Part shown: positions 24,466 to 31,574 of the stretch, piece by piece
How the letters are laid out: the number at the start of each line of letters is the position of its first letter
Position numbering within the stretch: the first letter of the stretch is position 1
Source of the DNA: a bacterium
GTDB taxonomy: Bacteria; Patescibacteriota; Minisyncoccia; CAYZDR01
DNA: 61,656 nt
Assembly (NCBI GenBank): GCA_043806975.1
Contig: JAZDGL010000069.1
Coordinates: 1 to 61,656 of the forward strand
Direction of reading: 5' to 3'
The notes under the pieces: generated by a model
Told to the model about the DNA's origin: nothing
The model's input: only the letters and a program-made list of their open reading frames with translations
Databases searched by the model: none
Position numbers and translations under genes: made by a program

Positions 24466-26436
24466 ATGAATAACATTACTTATTTTGCTAAAACAAATTT
24501 TAGAAATCAAGAGAAAACTTTTGGAATAAAGCCTGACGATCGCCGCCGCCATGTGTATTTGATTGGAAAGACTGGTATGGGAAAAACTGAATGTATGAAA
24601 AATATGGTGATTCAGGATATCCAAAACGGGCATGGTGTAGCAATTCTTGATCCGCATGGAGACGCGGCGGAGGATCTTTTAAATTTTGTTCCGCCTTCAA
24701 GAATAAATGATGTTGTTTATTTTAATCCTGCTGACGAAGAAAACCCAATCGCGTTTAATATCTTGGAATCTGTTGATGGAAGGGACAAAAAATATTTGAT
24801 TGCGTCGGGGCTAATGGGAGTTTTTAAAAAGCTTTGGCCTGATGTTTGGAGCGCCCGAATGGAATATTTACTTAATAACACGATTCTTGCTCTTTTAGAG
24901 TATCCTAGCAGCACAATGCTGGGGATAAATAGAATGTTTTCCGATAAAGAATTTAGGAAAAAAGTTGTGGATAGGGTGACTGATCCGCTGGTTAAGTCGT
25001 TTTGGGTGAATGAATTCGCGAAATATACCGATCGGCTTGCGACAGAGGCGACTTCGGCGGTGCAAAACAAGGTAGGACAATTTTTGTCTTCTGCGATTAT
25101 CCGCAACATTATTGGACAGCCAAAATCAACGATTAGTATGCGGGATATTATGAATAATCAGAAAATTTTGATAGTAAATCTTTCCAAGGGTAAAATCGGC
25201 GAAGACAATATGAAGCTTTTGGGGGGAATGATTGTGACAAAATTACAGCTGGCGGCGATGGAAAGGGTGAATATTCCCGAAGAAGACAGAAAAGATTTTT
25301 ATCTTTATGTTGATGAGTTGCAGAATTTTGTAAATGAATCTTTCGCGGGAATTCTCTCTGAGGCAAGAAAATATCGCCTTTCGCTTACTTTGGCACATCA
25401 GTATATTAAGCAGCTCCCAGAGGTTATTCGCGACGCTATATTTGGCAACGCGGGAACTTTAATAACTTTTCGCATAGGCGCGGAAGATGCGGAATTTTTG
25501 GAAAAAGAGTTTGAGCCTGCCGTGATGATGAATGATATTATCAATCTTCCGAAATATAATATTTATTTAAAATTGATGATTGATGGGATTACCAGCAATG
25601 CTTTTAGTGCCGTTTCGCTCCCCCCGATGAAACCGGCAGAGGCTAGCTCGGTTGATAAGGTGGTTAAGGTTTCAAGAGAGCGATATAGCAAGAAGAAAAT
25701 GGAAGTAGAAGAAAAAATTATTCGTTGGATAGGCGTGGATATAGGCGATAATAGTAAAGGAAATTTGGCGGGCAAAGAAAATGGGGGTTATTCAGGCAGC
25801 GGAGGAGGCGAAAATCCTCCCGAGATGTTTAAAGCAGAGTGCGCCCAGTGCGGAAAGCCGACTTTTGTTCCGTTTAAGCCCGATGAAAGGCGGCCTGTCT
25901 TTTGCGAAAAATGTTTGAAGAATTTAAGAAGCTCGGGCGCCACTTTTTCATACAAGAAAGCAGGAAATGGGCAGGAGCAAAATGGAGCGGTTCAAAATAA
26001 AGAAAATAGAGTTAGCGAGGCGCCGAATCTGCCTAAAAAAGAAAATTATTCGCAAAATAATAATAATCAAGAGAATAATAATTATCGCAAGCCCGGGTTA
26101 AACCAATATAACAATGATCTTTTAAGCGAGGCTCCCAAAAAAGAAGTTTCTATTAAAGATGCTTTACAAAAAGCTTTGGCAGGGGAAACGAGCAAACAAG
26201 TGGTTACAAAAAGTCGCCAAAAAGAGGTTGATGTGGCAGGAATAAGGGATTTAGTAAGCAATGTTTTGAATAAGCGAATGGGGAGCGGAGATGGCGGGGA
26301 AAATAAGAGCGATGAAAATGGCAAAGGTATTGCGGATGCGGGGGTAAATAATTTGTCAGGACAAAATTTAGAAAAACCTTCTTCCGCGCAAGCAGGGAAT
26401 GAGCTTAAACAAGGAGAAGAGGTAAGATTTTCTTAA
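24466..26436 (+). CDS. TraD/VirD4-like (type IV coupling protein family) P-loop ATPase with C-terminal CxxC-x17-CxxC zinc ribbon
   Basis: Walker A GKTGMGKT, Walker B FYLYVDELQNF, LTLAHQY. CAQCGKPTFVPFKPDERRPVFCEKC at about 25840-25914. Low-complexity N/Q/G-rich tail. Confidence 0.75.
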   Translation: MNNITYFAKTNFRNQEKTFGIKPDDRRRHVYLIGKTGMGKTECMKNMVIQDIQNGHGVAILDPHGDAAEDLLNFVPPSRINDVVYFNPADEENPIAFNILESVDGRDKKYLIASGLMGVFKKLWPDVWSARMEYLLNNTILALLEYPSSTMLGINRMFSDKEFRKKVVDRVTDPLVKSFWVNEFAKYTDRLATEATSAVQNKVGQFLSSAIIRNIIGQPKSTISMRDIMNNQKILIVNLSKGKIGEDNMKLLGGMIVTKLQLAAMERVNIPEEDRKDFYLYVDELQNFVNESFAGILSEARKYRLSLTLAHQYIKQLPEVIRDAIFGNAGTLITFRIGAEDAEFLEKEFEPAVMMNDIINLPKYNIYLKLMIDGITSNAFSAVSLPPMKPAEASSVDKVVKVSRERYSKKKMEVEEKIIRWIGVDIGDNSKGNLAGKENGGYSGSGGGENPPEMFKAECAQCGKPTFVPFKPDERRPVFCEKCLKNLRSSGATFSYKKAGNGQEQNGAVQNKENRVSEAPNLPKKENYSQNNNNQENNNYRKPGLNQYNNDLLSEAPKKEVSIKDALQKALAGETSKQVVTKSRQKEVDVAGIRDLVSNVLNKRMGSGDGGENKSDENGKGIADAGVNNLSGQNLEKPSSAQAGNELKQGEEVRFS

Positions 26437-27469: not shown

Positions 27470-27694
27470 GCTGTTTTGCGATAGCTATAGCTGCCGCAAA
27501 ACAAATTCCAATATTTTCTCCTTTTGGTTCTCCTTCGCCCTATGGGCTTCGCGGGATGCAGCAAGGGAGATTAAGAGGGATTCCAATATTTTCTCCTCGC
27601 AATAAGGGAGACTGAGAGGGATTCCAATATTTCCTCCCTTAATAAGGGGGGATGAAGGGGGTTTTTAAAATAAATTTGTTTTGCGGAAGCTATA
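27470..27694 (+). repeat. family-1 cluster: solo 3' TIR plus full element with 3 tandem modules
   Basis: GCTGTTTTGCGATAGCTA overlaps the start of the full element, TATAGCTGCCGCAAAACAAATTCC. Three units of ATTCCAATATTT(T/C)CTCC-loop-GG(G)GA..AGAGGG follow, and it ends TTTGTTTTGCGGAAGCTATA. Confidence 0.9.
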
Positions 27695-27715
27695 ATTTAT
27701 TTGCAAATAAGTTTA

Positions 27716-27786
27716 CGGGGTATAGCGTAAAGGTAGCGCGCAGCTTTCGGGTAGCTGTAGTTCCAGTTCAATTCTGGATACCCCGA
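27716..27786 (+). tRNA. tRNA-Pro (anticodon CGG)
   Basis: Acceptor CGGGGTA/TACCCCG, U8, D stem GCGT/GCGC, anticodon stem CAGCT/AGCTG with loop TTCGGGT (G37), T arm TCCAG-TTCAATT-CTGGA. Confidence 0.85.
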
Positions 27787-27798
27787 CAGGAAGTTTAA

Positions 27799-27852
27799 AT
27801 TAAAATTGCTCAAGCATTAGATATAAAAGTGGATGATTTAACCAAAAAATAA
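27799..27852 (+). pseudogene. C-terminal remnant of an XRE/controller-type HTH gene
   Basis: Translates to IKIAQALDIKVDDLTKK*, typical of the last helix and tail of XRE HTH proteins. A TAA lies immediately upstream, there is no start codon, and it ends 2 nt before the MTase ATG. Confidence 0.4.
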
Positions 27853-27854
27853 AT

Positions 27855-29126
27855 ATGAGCCAAACAGTTATCTCGTTATTGAATAAAATAAAAATTGATC
27901 CATCGTGGTCTTTTTCCGATAAAACAAGGAAGGAAACGGCGTATATTACGCATGGGTATCATCGTTATCCTGCAAAATTTATTCCGCAAATAGTTTCTCG
28001 TTTGGCGGAAAAATATACACGAGCAGGCGATTTTATCGTTGATCCATTTGGTGGTTGCGGGACGACTCTTGTTGAATCAAGAGTTATGGGACGGCCGTCA
28101 ATTGCCGTTGATATTAACCCAGTCGCTGTTTTAATTACGAAAGCGAAAATTACGGCAATTGATCCTATAAAAATTGAAAAGGAATTTACAATTTTTCAAA
28201 AGAAATTGGAATCTTATAGCGAAAAAACAAAAGTAAAAGCTCCTGAGCACGAAAGAATTGACTATTGGTTTAAGCCAGAAGAAAAAAGAAAACTTGCTTT
28301 TATTTTTGCTGAGATTTCAAAAATAAAAGATCAAGATATTCAAGATTTCTTTTTCTGCGGGTTTTCAAACATTCTTAAAAATTGTTCAATATGGCTACAA
28401 AAAAGTAATAAACCAACAAGGGATTTTGAAAAAAAACCTTCGGAGCCGATTAAAACATTTTTAAAACAAATAAAAATGATGTTGCGAGGCAACACGCGAT
28501 TATTTGAATTGTTATCAGAAAAAGGTTATTCGAAGATTTCAAGTAAAGTAATTTGCACAGACGCAAGGACAATTCCCGCAAAGGATAACAGTGTTAGCTT
28601 GATTGTTACTTCTCCGCCTTATGTGACCTCTTACGAATACGCCGATCTGCACCAACTCACTGCTTTATGGTTAGAATATACTAAGGATTTGAGCGACTTT
28701 CGAAAACGATTTATTGGCACTTCGTATCACAATAAAAAAGATTTGACGCTTAATAGTGCGATTGCGGAAAATATCAGAAAAAAATTGTTAGAGAAAGATA
28801 AAAAAACCGCCGAGGAAGTTTCAACATACTTTAGCGAGATGAATCAGGTATTTGTTGAAATGAAAAGAATGCTAAAAAAAGGCGGAAAAACCTGTATTGT
28901 CATTGGCAATACGAGCTTAAAAGGCGTTGAAATACTTAATGCGGAGGTTTTTGTTGAGCAATTACAAAACTTGGGATTAAAAATCGCCGATATTATTAAA
29001 AGAGAAATTCCTTCAAAAAATTTGCCGTCTGTTCGAGATGAAAAGACGGGTAAATTTGCGAGCATAAATGATAAAAATAAAGTTTCTGTTTATCCAACAG
29101 AGTATATATTAATAATGGAAAAATAA
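27855..29126 (+). CDS. DNA methyltransferase, N4-cytosine or N6-adenine (SPPY type)
   Basis: Motif I DPFGGCGTT near the N-terminus and motif IV TSPPY about 190 aa later (alpha-like order). SPPY is commoner in m4C enzymes. Confidence 0.8.
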   Translation: MSQTVISLLNKIKIDPSWSFSDKTRKETAYITHGYHRYPAKFIPQIVSRLAEKYTRAGDFIVDPFGGCGTTLVESRVMGRPSIAVDINPVAVLITKAKITAIDPIKIEKEFTIFQKKLESYSEKTKVKAPEHERIDYWFKPEEKRKLAFIFAEISKIKDQDIQDFFFCGFSNILKNCSIWLQKSNKPTRDFEKKPSEPIKTFLKQIKMMLRGNTRLFELLSEKGYSKISSKVICTDARTIPAKDNSVSLIVTSPPYVTSYEYADLHQLTALWLEYTKDLSDFRKRFIGTSYHNKKDLTLNSAIAENIRKKLLEKDKKTAEEVSTYFSEMNQVFVEMKRMLKKGGKTCIVIGNTSLKGVEILNAEVFVEQLQNLGLKIADIIKREIPSKNLPSVRDEKTGKFASINDKNKVSVYPTEYILIMEK

Positions 29127-29130
29127 AACT

Positions 29131-29799
29131 ATGAGTATAAACGACCTTATCAAAATTTACGAAACAAAAAAGAAAAAATATGGTGTGCAAGCATATCGCC
29201 ACATTTCAAATGTTTTGAAAGAAGCCAAAGAATTACATAAAAAAGATTTTACAGGCAATGACCACGAGCAATCGTGGCGCGCTTTCAAAGGTAAAAACTT
29301 GGAAAAATTGATTGAATACATTATCACGGATGAAGTTAACGCTTTAAACTTGCGGGTAGTAAATGGAAATAGTCTTGAAAGAACGAACGGATCAAATCTT
29401 TCAAAAGAGTTAAGTTTGGTTAAAAGAAATCTAATTGTTGATTATGGCGAGTTTGGTTCGCATTTACCGGATGTCGATTTGATTATTTACGACCCAAAAA
29501 CTAGCAAAGTCGTTGCTGTTTTGTCAAGCAAGGTAACTTTGCGGGAAAGAATAGCCCAAACTGGTTATTGGAAAATTAAACTTGCCTCTGACGAAGCGAC
29601 AAAACATATCAAAGTTTATTTCGTAACGCCGGATGAAGACGGAACACTAACGATTAAAAAACCTACAAAAAAAGGCAGGGCAATCGTTGAAGTGGATACA
29701 GACGGCAGTTATGTTTTGAGTGAGACAGATATTGAGGAAAGCGACAAGGTAAAAATGTTTGATAAATTTATTGATGATCTTAAGAAATTGCTCAAATAA
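29131..29799 (+). CDS. type II restriction endonuclease, PD-(D/E)XK, possibly CCGG-family-like
   Basis: It sits between two MTase genes with gaps of 4-5 nt. PDVDLIIYD...VLSSKVTLRER gives a PD...SxK core followed by K-x3-R-E-R. Confidence 0.65.
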   Translation: MSINDLIKIYETKKKKYGVQAYRHISNVLKEAKELHKKDFTGNDHEQSWRAFKGKNLEKLIEYIITDEVNALNLRVVNGNSLERTNGSNLSKELSLVKRNLIVDYGEFGSHLPDVDLIIYDPKTSKVVAVLSSKVTLRERIAQTGYWKIKLASDEATKHIKVYFVTPDEDGTLTIKKPTKKGRAIVEVDTDGSYVLSETDIEESDKVKMFDKFIDDLKKLLK

Positions 29800-29804
29800 A
29801 TAAT

Positions 29805-30533
29805 ATGTCCAATAATTTAATAATTGAGTCAACAACTTTATGGGATTTTCCGAGACAAAATTATGGTGACAAGCCACACGGAAATAATAAATATAACGGT
29901 GTAACGCCGGCTTTTGTCATTTGGAATTTACTCCAAAGATATACCAAAGAGGGCGATTTAGTCGTTGATCCGATGTGCGGGAGCGGGACGACAATTGATG
30001 TTGCAAAAGAATTGAACAGGAAAGTAATCGGCTATGATCTGAACATTGTTAGACCCGATGTAATTAAAAACGATGCCCGACAAATTCCGCTTGCTGACAA
30101 TTCTGTTGATTTTGTTTTTATTGATTCGCCATATTCCGACAATATCAATTATTCTGACAATAAAGAGTGCATTGGTAAAATTTCTTGCGAAAAAATAGAA
30201 TTTTATGATGAATTAGAAAAAACCGCTACGGAAATTGCAAGAATTTTAAAACCTGGAAAAGCTATGGGTTGGGTTATTGCCGATCAATGGGTCAAAAAGA
30301 AATTTACAGCCGTTGGATTTTTGATGTGGCAAAGGTTAGAAAAACATTTTGAACCAATGGATATTGTTTGCTTAACAAGGCATAACCAAACATCAAACAC
30401 GGGGATTTGGCATAACAGAGCAAGGCAGTTTAATTTTTATTTGAGAGGTTTTAAATATTTGTTTATTATGAGAAAATCAGCGCCATTGCGAGAAAAGCAG
30501 GTGAGTAGTCGTGAACCCAGCCATTTACTTTAA
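29805..30533 (+). CDS. second DNA methyltransferase (amino-MTase, motif I before motif IV)
   Basis: VVDPMCGSGTTIDVA (motif I) and FVFIDSPY (motif IV-like). Confidence 0.7.
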   Translation: MSNNLIIESTTLWDFPRQNYGDKPHGNNKYNGVTPAFVIWNLLQRYTKEGDLVVDPMCGSGTTIDVAKELNRKVIGYDLNIVRPDVIKNDARQIPLADNSVDFVFIDSPYSDNINYSDNKECIGKISCEKIEFYDELEKTATEIARILKPGKAMGWVIADQWVKKKFTAVGFLMWQRLEKHFEPMDIVCLTRHNQTSNTGIWHNRARQFNFYLRGFKYLFIMRKSAPLREKQVSSREPSHLL

Positions 30534-30570
30534 ACTTAAAATATGGTAAAATAAAAAAGTGGAATTCACC

Positions 30571-30610
30571 GAAGAGGAATTTGTAAATAATTTTTTTTGC
30601 GGGATCTATA
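30571..30610 (+). repeat. family-1 3' half element
   Basis: GAAGAGGAATTTGTAAATAATTTTTTTTGCGGGATCTATA aligns to GAGAGGGATTCTAAAATAAATTTGTTTTGCGGGAGCTATA. Confidence 0.65.
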
Positions 30611-30650
30611 TTTTAATCAATTTATAAATTTATAAAACTAGAATAAAACT

Positions 30651-31574
30651 ATGAAAAAAACTGCGATAGGGGTAATAATAATTGTGGCATTGATTTTAGC
30701 AGGGGCGGGTGTTTTGAGGAACCTTAAAAATAGAGAAAATGGTTGGGTTTGTGAAAATGGGCAGTGGGTGAAGCGCGGGAACCCAAATACTTCAAAACCG
30801 GAAGGATTATGTGGAGTTCCTGCCGAGGATGAAAATAAAGAGAATGAAAATGCCGATGAGACAGAGGAAGAATCAAATATCATTGTTTCGTATCCTGAAC
30901 CGGGCGATCAGGTGAGTTTTCCTTTTAGGGTGGAAGGGATGGCGCGGGTTTTTGAAAGCACTCTTATGATTGAGTTGAAAGATAAAAATGGCAATGTTAT
31001 TTTTGATTCTTTCGCGATGGCGAACAGTCCAGATATGGGTCAGTTCGGACCGTTTGAGAAGGAAATTGATTTTTTAACAAATGCGCCGGAAAAAGAAGAT
31101 GTAGTTTTGGAAGTTTTTTGGTATTCTCCAAAAGACGGATCAAGACTTGATATGCGGTCTATCCCCTTAAAAATGACAGTCGGCGATGTTAGCAAAGTTG
31201 AGATTTTTTTCAGCAATGACAATTTTGACCCAGAAATTTCTTGCAATGTAGTTTTTCCAGTGGAGAGAGTTGTCCCCGCGGCGGAAAATATCGCGGAAAC
31301 TGCCATCGGGATGTTGCTAAAAGGATTGTTTAGAAAAGAATATAATGAAGGTTATCGCACGAATATAAATGCGGGAGTTAAATTTCAAAAAATAACGATA
31401 AAAAATCAAATAGCGTATATAGATTTTAACGAAGAATTGGAAGCGGCGGTTGGAGGATCTTGCTGGGTTTCTGCCATTCGCGCGCAAATCACACAGACAT
31501 TAAAACAGTTTTCAACCATTAAAGATGTTGTGATTTCAATTAACGGAAAATCTGAGGACATTTTGCAGCCGTAA
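30651..31574 (+). CDS. secreted/anchored Gmad2 Ig-like plus GerMN domain protein
   Basis: N-terminal TM segment. SYPEPGDQVSFPFRVEGMARVFESTLMIELKD is Gmad2-like. The C-terminal part (FPVERVVP...AIGMLLKG...IAYIDFNEEL...IKDVVISINGKS) is GerMN-like. Confidence 0.65.
   Translation: MKKTAIGVIIIVALILAGAGVLRNLKNRENGWVCENGQWVKRGNPNTSKPEGLCGVPAEDENKENENADETEEESNIIVSYPEPGDQVSFPFRVEGMARVFESTLMIELKDKNGNVIFDSFAMANSPDMGQFGPFEKEIDFLTNAPEKEDVVLEVFWYSPKDGSRLDMRSIPLKMTVGDVSKVEIFFSNDNFDPEISCNVVFPVERVVPAAENIAETAIGMLLKGLFRKEYNEGYRTNINAGVKFQKITIKNQIAYIDFNEELEAAVGGSCWVSAIRAQITQTLKQFSTIKDVVISINGKSEDILQP

Follow-up and report, generated by a model that had tools for sequence, protein, structure and literature searches.

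A 61,656-nt stretch of DNA (contig JAZDGL010000069.1 of assembly GCA_043806975.1, here called the window in its whole length) from a patescibacterium of the class Minisyncoccia carries, directly behind a tRNA-Pro gene, what we read as a horizontally acquired Type II restriction-modification (R-M) cassette that is probably active and has lost its controller gene. From sequence comparisons and structural models, we put the probability of this reading as a whole at about 80%. The cassette spans positions 27801 to ~30480 and is ordered (C-stump)–M1–R–M2, that is, the remnant of a controller (C) gene, a first methyltransferase (M1), a restriction endonuclease (R), and a second, smaller methyltransferase (M2). 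M1, R, and M2 are all full-length open reading frames (ORFs), point in the same direction, and are separated by gaps of 4 nt (M1–R) and 5 nt (R–M2), as the first-pass annotation, made from the letters of the window alone, had described when it gave gaps of 4 to 5 nt. The same annotation had recognized an M-R-M island adjoining tRNA-Pro and listed seven components (a complete repeat element, the tRNA, a short helix-turn-helix [HTH] remnant, a methyltransferase, a nuclease, a second methyltransferase, and half of the same repeat), each of which is present in the sequence.

The cassette begins 13 nt past the 3′ end of tRNA-Pro(CGG), a native single-copy gene and the only Pro-CGG tRNA of the genome. 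In 89 sister cassettes from other genomes, nucleotide homology never reaches left of position 27801. On the right, conservation ends after the motif GFKYLFIM(R/K)K in every locus (position 30476 in the window), beyond which there are only short, genome-specific tails; the last 18 residues of M2 (225 to 242, with the stop codon at 30531 to 30533) are thus encoded by local DNA that does not belong to the cassette. In a subset of cassettes from different lineages, the M2 stop codon is followed by a noncoding element of ~60 nt (GCGGCGCGCCA...GGCACGAAAAATTGCGGCGGCGAAAA). Because its alignment to the M2 tail in the window is unconvincing, we place the right edge at 30477 to ~30503. Synonymous sites are near saturation, and so these sharp edges may show where constraint ends no less than where the transferred DNA ends.

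The lost controller gene and the spread of the cassette family

The stump between the tRNA and M1 reads IKIAQALDIKVDDLTKK (17 codons, followed by a stop codon) in the frame from 27799 to 27852. Its counterpart at sister locus L004 is an intact 72-aa HTH gene (L004:184-402) situated 2 nt upstream of M1, with a C-terminal end of ...KIAQALDVKVDDLIKK / ...TLTKIAQALDVKVDDLIKK before the stop codon. The stump is identical to the tail of this gene at 14 of 17 amino acids and 46 of 54 nt, and tblastn aligns it to HTH residues 50 to 72. The L004 protein belongs to HTH_3/XRE (E = 4e-13) and, among PDB entries, matches SinR best, together with the controller proteins C.BclI (1e-6) and C.AhdI (5e-4). A significant HTH match thus exists for the peptide, which had been proposed to be the tail of an XRE/controller protein. 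Of the eight nucleotides that differ from L004, five are at third codon positions, which argues that the remnant was coding for most of its history. Since homology stops at 27801, the promoter/operator and ~55 codons are gone: neither an intact HTH controller gene nor its upstream operator is present in the window.

Intact C genes occur at eight sister loci (L004, L011, L013, L017, L018, L036, L061, and L068), and a conserved repeat upstream of them (e.g., CATACTTATACTATCATACT) is plausibly an operator, as judged from its sequence and position. The ancestral cassette would therefore have carried an XRE/controller-type HTH gene and an operator-like promoter region directly upstream of M1. This arrangement resembles that of C-regulated R-M systems (C.AhdI, C.BclI, C.PvuII, C.Esp1396I, and C.Kpn2I), in which an XRE-type HTH gene of ~70 aa likewise heads the operon with a conserved repeat just upstream. 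It differs in that a classical C gene precedes and controls R, whereas here C precedes M1 (C–M1–R–M2), in that the repeat is only a putative C-box, in that SinR is a better PDB match to the cassette HTH than is any C protein, and in that the gene in the window is cut to 17 codons.

Decay of the C gene takes several forms: an internal stop codon (L051), 5′ truncations (L028 and L021), stumps of 53 to 56 nt (L001, L044, and L033) or 50 nt (L025), shorter stumps in other loci, and, in most of the distant cassettes, no trace at all. In five independent loci, with two types of HTH tail, C-gene homology breaks off 50 to 56 nt before the M1 start, and this recurrent edge points either to a functional element that M1 requires for its expression or to a hot spot of recombination. 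At a further locus (L014:4404-5996), loss of the C stop codon has joined the HTH gene in frame with M1 into a 530-aa ORF (...VDDLIKKNMSQTITS...), an arrangement that recalls methyltransferases with an N-terminal regulatory HTH. As for the idea that the cassette arrived with C-protein regulation and then lost it, the stump is indeed what is left of the cassette's own C-type gene, but the loss may have preceded or followed arrival.

We found no promoter-like or terminator-like site between tRNA-Pro and M1, no sigma-70-like promoter in the stump, and no RNA structure at either cassette junction that was better than in shuffled controls. Because all but the last 54 nt of the C gene and its promoter region has been removed, transcription of the M1–R–M2 operon now most likely reads through from the tRNA-Pro promoter.

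Its distribution marks the cassette as acquired. R is absent from all 30 of the nearest genomes and present in only 6 of 301 genomes of the class, one of these copies being a pseudogene, so that the cassette is neither universal nor syntenic among relatives. Relatives with 72 to 97% protein identity nevertheless occur in 368 species genomes of both bacteria and archaea, with hosts that include Patescibacteria, Ignavibacteria, Elusimicrobia, Gammaproteobacteria, Nitrospirae, Altiarchaeum, Woesearchaeota, Pacearchaeota, and Methanosarcinales. Linkage is kept over this range (the M1–R–M2 trio is found in ~75 of 89 loci), and the ratio of nonsynonymous to synonymous substitution (dN/dS) is 0.03 to 0.09 over all three genes (0.04 to 0.09 for M1), with synonymous divergence (dS) of 0.5 to 1 from the closest relatives and saturated from the distant ones. 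Low dN/dS at such high dS argues for strong purifying selection and transfer across phyla and not merely for very recent spread. Judged from these comparisons, the cassette is horizontally acquired and foreign to its lineage. No relatives of R were found on PLSDB plasmids, among GenBank phages, or on IMG/VR contigs, and a literature search returned no paper on this cassette in Patescibacteria.

The spacer between R and M2 is variable across the family: among 83 loci, it measures 42 nt or less in ~45 (the window, with 5 nt at 29800 to 29804, included), 229 to 285 nt in 16, and 0.4 to 2.4 kb in 22. The larger inserts include a Z1/ResIII ATPase and a 164-aa protein; in the window, this slot is empty. 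Within the same class, the copy of R in genome G274 (G274:C35:1427-2104) has decayed and is interrupted by 13 in-frame stop codons, from which it follows that the cassette can also be lost by pseudogenization.

The element is thus of a known type, but its family is unusually conserved across many bacterial and archaeal phyla. A restriction enzyme at 72 to 97% identity across Patescibacteria, many other bacterial phyla, and DPANN/Euryarchaeota is a rarity, and it is at the level of the family, through its cross-domain spread under strong purifying selection, its association with tRNAs and serine recombinases, and its recurrent stump edge, that the case rises above routine; for this genome, the cassette is an ordinary defense and addiction module. 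As an easy target for a new specificity of the CCGG type, the family would be applicable to hundreds of uncultivated organisms, and its methylation motif would serve binning and host linking in metagenomes. For annotation, M1, R, and M2 are best entered as predicted functional genes and the 17-codon ORF as a pseudogene remnant; in M2, the final 18 residues should be marked as not native to the protein.

The nuclease and the two methyltransferases

R is most likely a genuine PD...K enzyme of the CCGG family, with a predicted CCGG or CCNGG core as its recognition sequence. It matches Pfam PF18643 (RE_BsaWI) with an E value of 1.2e-33 and 115.7 bits (cutoff, 26.2). A single-sequence phmmer search of R against PDB returned no match; a profile built from 54 diverse family members retrieves BsaWI (4ZSF) as the only significant sequence (E = 9e-7). 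This alignment places E58, D114, and K134 of R on the catalytic residues E92, D145, and K165 of BsaWI and places R138-E139-R140 on R169-D170-R171, which lie at K+4 to K+6 in both enzymes. The roles of the BsaWI residues (catalytic and CCGG reading) are those given in PMC4652773, as is the use of a continuous R-(D/E)-R motif by CCGG-family enzymes for reading CCGG. Both sets of residues are invariant or nearly so in 90 orthologues; among the 54 diverse members, P113 is invariant, D114 and K134 are at least 90% conserved, and R138-E139-R140 is nearly invariant.

The fold points in the same direction. An AlphaFold2 model of R (predicted local distance difference test [pLDDT], 96.6; predicted template modeling score [pTM], 0.91) was compared with PDB by Foldseek, and the top six chains belong to PfoI, PspGI, BsaWI, and AgeI (E values of 1.5e-6 to 2.4e-4; TMq of 0.72 for PfoI), with Kpn2I and SgrAI ranking behind them. 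The four leading enzymes cut T^CCNGGA (PfoI), ^CCWGG (PspGI), W^CCGGW (BsaWI), and A^CCGGT (AgeI). Flanking bases are left out of the predicted site of R because BsaWI K85, which reads the outer A:T pair, is replaced by alanine (Ala51). As a symmetric dimer, R would most likely bind a palindrome that has CCGG (or CCNGG) at its core, read this core through R138-E139-R140, and cut with E58, D114, and K134. With the CCGG family (Type IIP/IIF enzymes such as BsaWI, PfoI, PspGI, AgeI, Kpn2I, NgoMIV, Cfr10I/Bse634I, SgrAI, and Ecl18kI), it shares the RE_BsaWI domain, the E...PD...K and R-(D/E)-R motifs, and the fold, although it is only 13 to 18% identical to any solved member and, at 222 aa, shorter than all of them. 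In the genome as a whole, several 4-nt palindromes are strongly depleted, with observed/expected (O/E) ratios of 0.06 for ACGT, 0.21 for GGCC, 0.25 for TCGA, 0.28 for GTAC, and 0.40 for CATG, which suggests long exposure to many restriction systems.

Both methyltransferases match the Pfam N6_N4_Mtase domain (PF01555; E = 6e-19 for M1 and 2e-22 for M2) and many PADLOC models of Type II methyltransferases (MTase_II for M1, E = 1.6e-59), and the cassette genes have NCBIfam matches as well. They differ in architecture. M1 is of the alpha type, with motif I (DPFGGCGTT, residues 63 to 71) followed by an insert of ~180 aa and then by SPPY (253 to 256), whereas in M2 motif I (DPMCGSGTT, 55 to 63) is closely followed by DSPY (107 to 110). 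SPPY, kept in 79 of 82 M1 orthologues, is the motif typical of N4-cytosine methylases, and M1 is most likely an enzyme of this kind, predicted to place N4-methylcytosine within the site of R. Motif IV of M2 is DSPY in 73 of 75 orthologues and DPPY in the other 2, a mixture that identifies it as a variant of the D-type motif DPPY. M2 would add a second protective amino-methylation, either on another base (e.g., an outer adenine) or on another form of the substrate (single-stranded or hemimethylated DNA). The first-pass suggestion of two protective modifications stays viable, with an S-type motif IV in M1 and a D-type motif IV in M2.

Pairs of amino-methyltransferases for a single palindromic site have precedents in DpnII (DpnM plus the single-stranded DNA methylase DpnA) and in BcnI, which reportedly has two circularly permuted N4-cytosine methylases (Vilkaitis et al. 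2002, cited in PMC3573125). Here too, one nuclease is combined with two methyltransferases that differ in motif order, and the small one could by analogy be meant for a special substrate, such as incoming single-stranded DNA; a division of labor of this sort, with the second methylase acting on single-stranded DNA, is described for DpnII and BcnI in PMC3573125. The DpnII and BcnI nucleases are not of the CCGG family, however, and have folds unrelated to that of R. Moreover, M1 and M2 have different types of motif IV (SPPY versus DSPY/DPPY), which point to different target bases and not to a shared one.

tRNA 3′ ends, serine recombinases, and the proposed route to the locus

The position behind a tRNA recurs across the family. 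A tRNA lies within 450 nt upstream of M1 in 18 of the 66 loci with enough upstream sequence, in 17 of them on the same strand, against a background of 0.015 tRNA per 450-nt interval, i.e., ~1 expected in total. Deduplication leaves ~14 independent tRNA-adjacent loci, and these involve tRNAs for Pro, Ser, Glu, Gln, Leu, Gly, and Thr. At several loci, the island is enclosed by direct repeats whose start lies within the tRNA 3′ end (16/16 nt in L044, 18/18 in L011, 44/47 in L088, and 13/14 in L020, with a further case in L005); the bracketed islands measure 2.9 kb in L044, where they hold R-M genes only, 7 kb in L011, and 5.8 kb in L088. L011, L001/2, and L043 have a gene for a large serine recombinase that adjoins the tRNA or overlaps it, with the cassette coming next. 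The recombinase of L017 is internally deleted, retaining the resolvase domain and lacking the recombinase and zinc-ribbon domains, and its N terminus is 86% identical to that of L001, although the two hosts belong to different phyla. L001 additionally contains a 150-nt inverted copy of the recombinase 3′ end (L001:762-909 and L001:4265-4414; 50 aa, 100% identical), which lies ~310 nt upstream of M1 and brackets a recombinase-HTH-ATPase segment; a similar, diverged copy exists in L011.

Taken together, the loci form a graded series that leads from a recombinase with C gene and cassette, through a deleted recombinase and a truncated or pseudogenized C gene beside the tRNA, to the 54-nt stump of the window and to stumps that are shorter still. 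Integrative elements with a large serine recombinase would have brought the cassette family to tRNA 3′ ends, and small, deletion-prone genomes would then have deleted the dispensable DNA between the essential tRNA and M1, leaving the addictive M1–R–M2 core. Deletion would stop at these two genes because the tRNA is essential and because loss of M1 is lethal while R is active. Loci of this kind share features with known tRNA-targeted islands and with R-M units flanked by direct repeats (PMC2853133), namely, the use of tRNA 3′ ends, bracketing repeats of 14 to 47 nt that begin within the tRNA, and, in some cases, a recombinase. They differ in having a large serine recombinase rather than the usual tyrosine integrase, in that most repeats of the family are shorter than the 30-bp threshold for long target duplications, and in that the copy in the window has neither recombinase nor repeat.

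Several observations weigh against our reading of the locus. The window lacks a recombinase and any significant duplication of the tRNA end or of a target (best repeat, p ~0.1), and no integrase, recombinase, or other mobility gene was found within ~10 kb on either side of the cassette. Gene order in the surroundings of the flanking genes is not preserved, not even in the three genomes of the same family, and the flanking orthologues are only 40 to 58% identical among the 30 relatives; since synteny is lost, no empty site can be defined. A dS of 0.5 to 1 from the nearest known relatives carries no information on the time of arrival or on the state of the cassette at that time. The recombinase could also have come independently to the same tRNA hot spots and not be the vehicle of the cassette. 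At the level of the enzymes, the helix that follows the catalytic lysine of R is missing its second acidic residue (D175, at K+10, in BsaWI; a glutamate at K+12 to 13 in the family motif), the residues of R at K+10, K+12, and K+13 being T144, Y146, and W147; the nearly invariant D116 may be a candidate fourth catalytic residue instead. CCGG and CCWGG are depleted in the genome (O/E, 0.46 and 0.44), yet so are many other 4-mers, WCCGGW is no further depleted, and ACGT, GGCC, TCGA, and GTAC have still lower O/E values, such that site avoidance is not diagnostic for R. Finally, motif IV is an imperfect predictor of the target base, and the recognition site and methylated bases are predictions.

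Two candidates for a right-hand attachment site (attR) or target duplication in the window were rejected: the AT-rich TTTAAA(C)TTAAAAT, a 13/14-nt match with p ~0.1, and a weak match that lies in housekeeping DNA 6 kb further downstream. A significant duplicate of the tRNA 3′ end, which the first-pass annotation had suggested looking for, is thus absent from the window. Neither is there a significant flanking repeat in the window of the kind left by R-M insertion with long target duplication (>30 bp, direct; Nobusato 2000, Furuta 2010), and exact-protein lookups of both flanking genes returned no records. With no recombinase, repeat, or empty site at this locus, the delivery route proposed for the window is an extrapolation from other genomes.

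The strongest alternative, a serious one although we consider it less likely than not, is that a bare (stump)–M1–R–M2 fragment entered already stripped, through transformation and illegitimate or microhomology-mediated recombination beside the tRNA, without a recombinase-bearing element ever having been present. Since M1 must be expressed, survival would be limited to fragments that retain the ~54 nt preceding M1. The absence from the window of a recombinase, an att-like repeat, or other foreign DNA fits this proposal, as does the recurrence of the same stump of ~53 to 56 nt, with two HTH tail types, in at least four other lineages, which would mark a functionally fixed left edge of the transferable unit. 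RM-only 2.9-kb islands between short repeats do exist (L044 and L020), the cassette is on no known plasmid, phage, or viral contig, and the insertion of R-M units without mobility genes is documented (Furuta, Abe, and Kobayashi 2010, PMC2853133). Bare-fragment entry alone, however, leaves unexplained the ~18-fold excess of upstream tRNAs and the repeats that begin inside tRNA 3′ ends, and the series from intact through deleted recombinase and truncated C gene to stump is more simply read as decay in place. The substitutions in the stump (5 of 8 at third positions) fit both histories alike.

A more far-reaching proposal extends the delivery-and-decay reading into a complete life cycle, in which the M1–R–M2 family is a self-contained, addictive, cross-domain module. 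Large-serine-recombinase elements would carry the module to tRNA 3′ ends; deletion would whittle it down to a minimal core; the left edge of this core would be fixed ~54 nt before M1 by an unrecognized M1-expression element within the last codons of the C gene; and the core, parked behind the tRNA, would exchange C-dependent control for the constitutive tRNA promoter. Such a hidden expression element would account for the breakpoint that is common to independent lineages with different HTH subtypes, and the dN/dS of 0.03 to 0.09 would, if the proposal is true, reflect repeated reestablishment in new hosts. That all four steps hold jointly is a tentative idea, and we would sooner expect one or another of them to fail. 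The gradation of loci from a recombinase-borne island down to a bare cassette behind a tRNA is an example of how addictive genes persist through genome reduction and of how the promoter of a tRNA may take over from a lost controller.

It is improbable that the restriction system no longer works here, with R silent or inactive and the cassette retained for methylation only (epigenetic or as immunity to addiction). The promoter/operator and the C gene are gone, M2 has lost its own stop codon and acquired a foreign tail of 18 residues, and decayed copies occur elsewhere, such as that of G274 with its 13 stops in R. Against this, R has its full length and all of its conserved residues, the C gene is missing from most sister cassettes too and yet all three genes show dN/dS values of 0.03 to 0.09, and lineage-specific M2 tails are the rule and not an anomaly.

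About equally improbable is that M1 and M2 each modify one strand of an asymmetric recognition site, as the first-pass annotation had offered as one of its two options. Type IIS enzymes are known to have two-methyltransferase systems of such a kind, R is flanked by two structurally different methyltransferases, and the trio is conserved in ~75 of 89 loci. R itself speaks otherwise: it has the CCGG-family fold and the R-E-R motif, and, with only 222 aa, there is no extra domain. All characterized nucleases of the CCGG family are symmetric dimers or tetramers acting on (pseudo)palindromes of the CCGG or CCNGG type (PMC4652773 and PMC6344858). We thus regard strand-specific methylation as unlikely and keep to a symmetric site.

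Host repeats and neighboring genes

The repeats that flank the tRNA and the cassette had been taken for island borders. Their ends are real, but they belong to an abundant miniature inverted-repeat transposable element (MITE) of the host, which is absent at the other cassette loci and whose left copy lies upstream of the native tRNA (Table 1). The arms of this left copy (27486 to 27507 and 27673 to 27694) are 95% complementary, and blastn-short coverage of the element reaches 107 genomic copies. The solo end on the right (~35 nt) has ~9 genomic matches, confined to 30580 to 30617, and lies ~40 nt upstream of the next gene; the ~100 nt between it and the cassette (30478 to 30577) are unique DNA. 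The 16-nt end motif of the MITE occurs 14 times in the window (0.24 expected) and 152 times in the 670-kb genome, MITE ends are found in 19% of the genome's intergenic segments, and solo ends are common (6 of the 14 in the window). The other cassette loci yield six weak matches to MITE ends in 836 kb, none of them flanking a cassette. Hence, although the outermost ends are inverted (27486 to 27501, minus; 30595 to 30610, plus) and ends in both flanking intergenic segments would be expected by chance with a probability of only ~4%, we give hardly any credence to a composite transposable unit of MITE, tRNA-Pro, cassette, and solo end moved by an IS630-type transposase, which would be bounded by a common host repeat with frequent solo ends, would have to carry the genome's only tRNA-Pro(CGG) along with the unique DNA before the right end, lacks flanking ends at other cassette loci, and leaves the tRNA association in other phyla unexplained.

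Table 1. Coordinates of the cassette, its surroundings in the window, and related features of sister loci
Feature	Position	Strand	Evidence and remarks
Complete family-1 host MITE	27481-27700	.	22-nt inverted ends, tandem 41-nt internal units; upstream of tRNA, outside cassette
tRNA-Pro(CGG)	27716-27787	+	ARAGORN; Rfam RF00005, 59.6 bits
Cassette left edge: C-gene stump (frame 27799-27852) and 2-nt spacer to M1 ATG	27801-27854	+	Homology with sister cassettes
M1, amino-methyltransferase, 423 aa	27855-29126	+	PF01555, PADLOC MTase_II
R, BsaWI/CCGG-family restriction endonuclease, 222 aa	29131-29799	+	PF18643
M2, small amino-methyltransferase, 242 aa	29805-30533	+	PF01555
Solo 3′ end of host MITE	30580-30612	+	78% identical to reference end; outside cassette
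Serine recombinase genes reading into tRNA 3′ end (Ser, Phe, Gln, Thr)	L011:2183-3811, L001:679-2256, L043:172-1713, L017:849-1487		
Loci of ~60-nt element after M2	L021:3775-3850, L028:7575-7650, L015:2782-2850, L084:2260-2330, L007:7590-7650		

The neighborhood of the cassette is otherwise made up of housekeeping genes: SecD, SecF, a sigma-like factor, an RlmN-like radical-SAM enzyme, a Gmad2/Germane protein, tRNA-Val, MnmA, and a histidine kinase. A 656-aa ATPase of the TraD/TrwB coupling-protein type, which combines a treble-clef zinc finger with a long tail of low complexity, is encoded two genes upstream of the cassette (24466 to 26436); no further conjugation genes were noticed in its vicinity. 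The start codon context of R, AATAAAACTATGA (29103 to 29134), reappears where the next host gene begins, at 30651 (30623 to 30654); both genes are without a Shine-Dalgarno sequence, which suggests that they have an A-rich initiation context in common.

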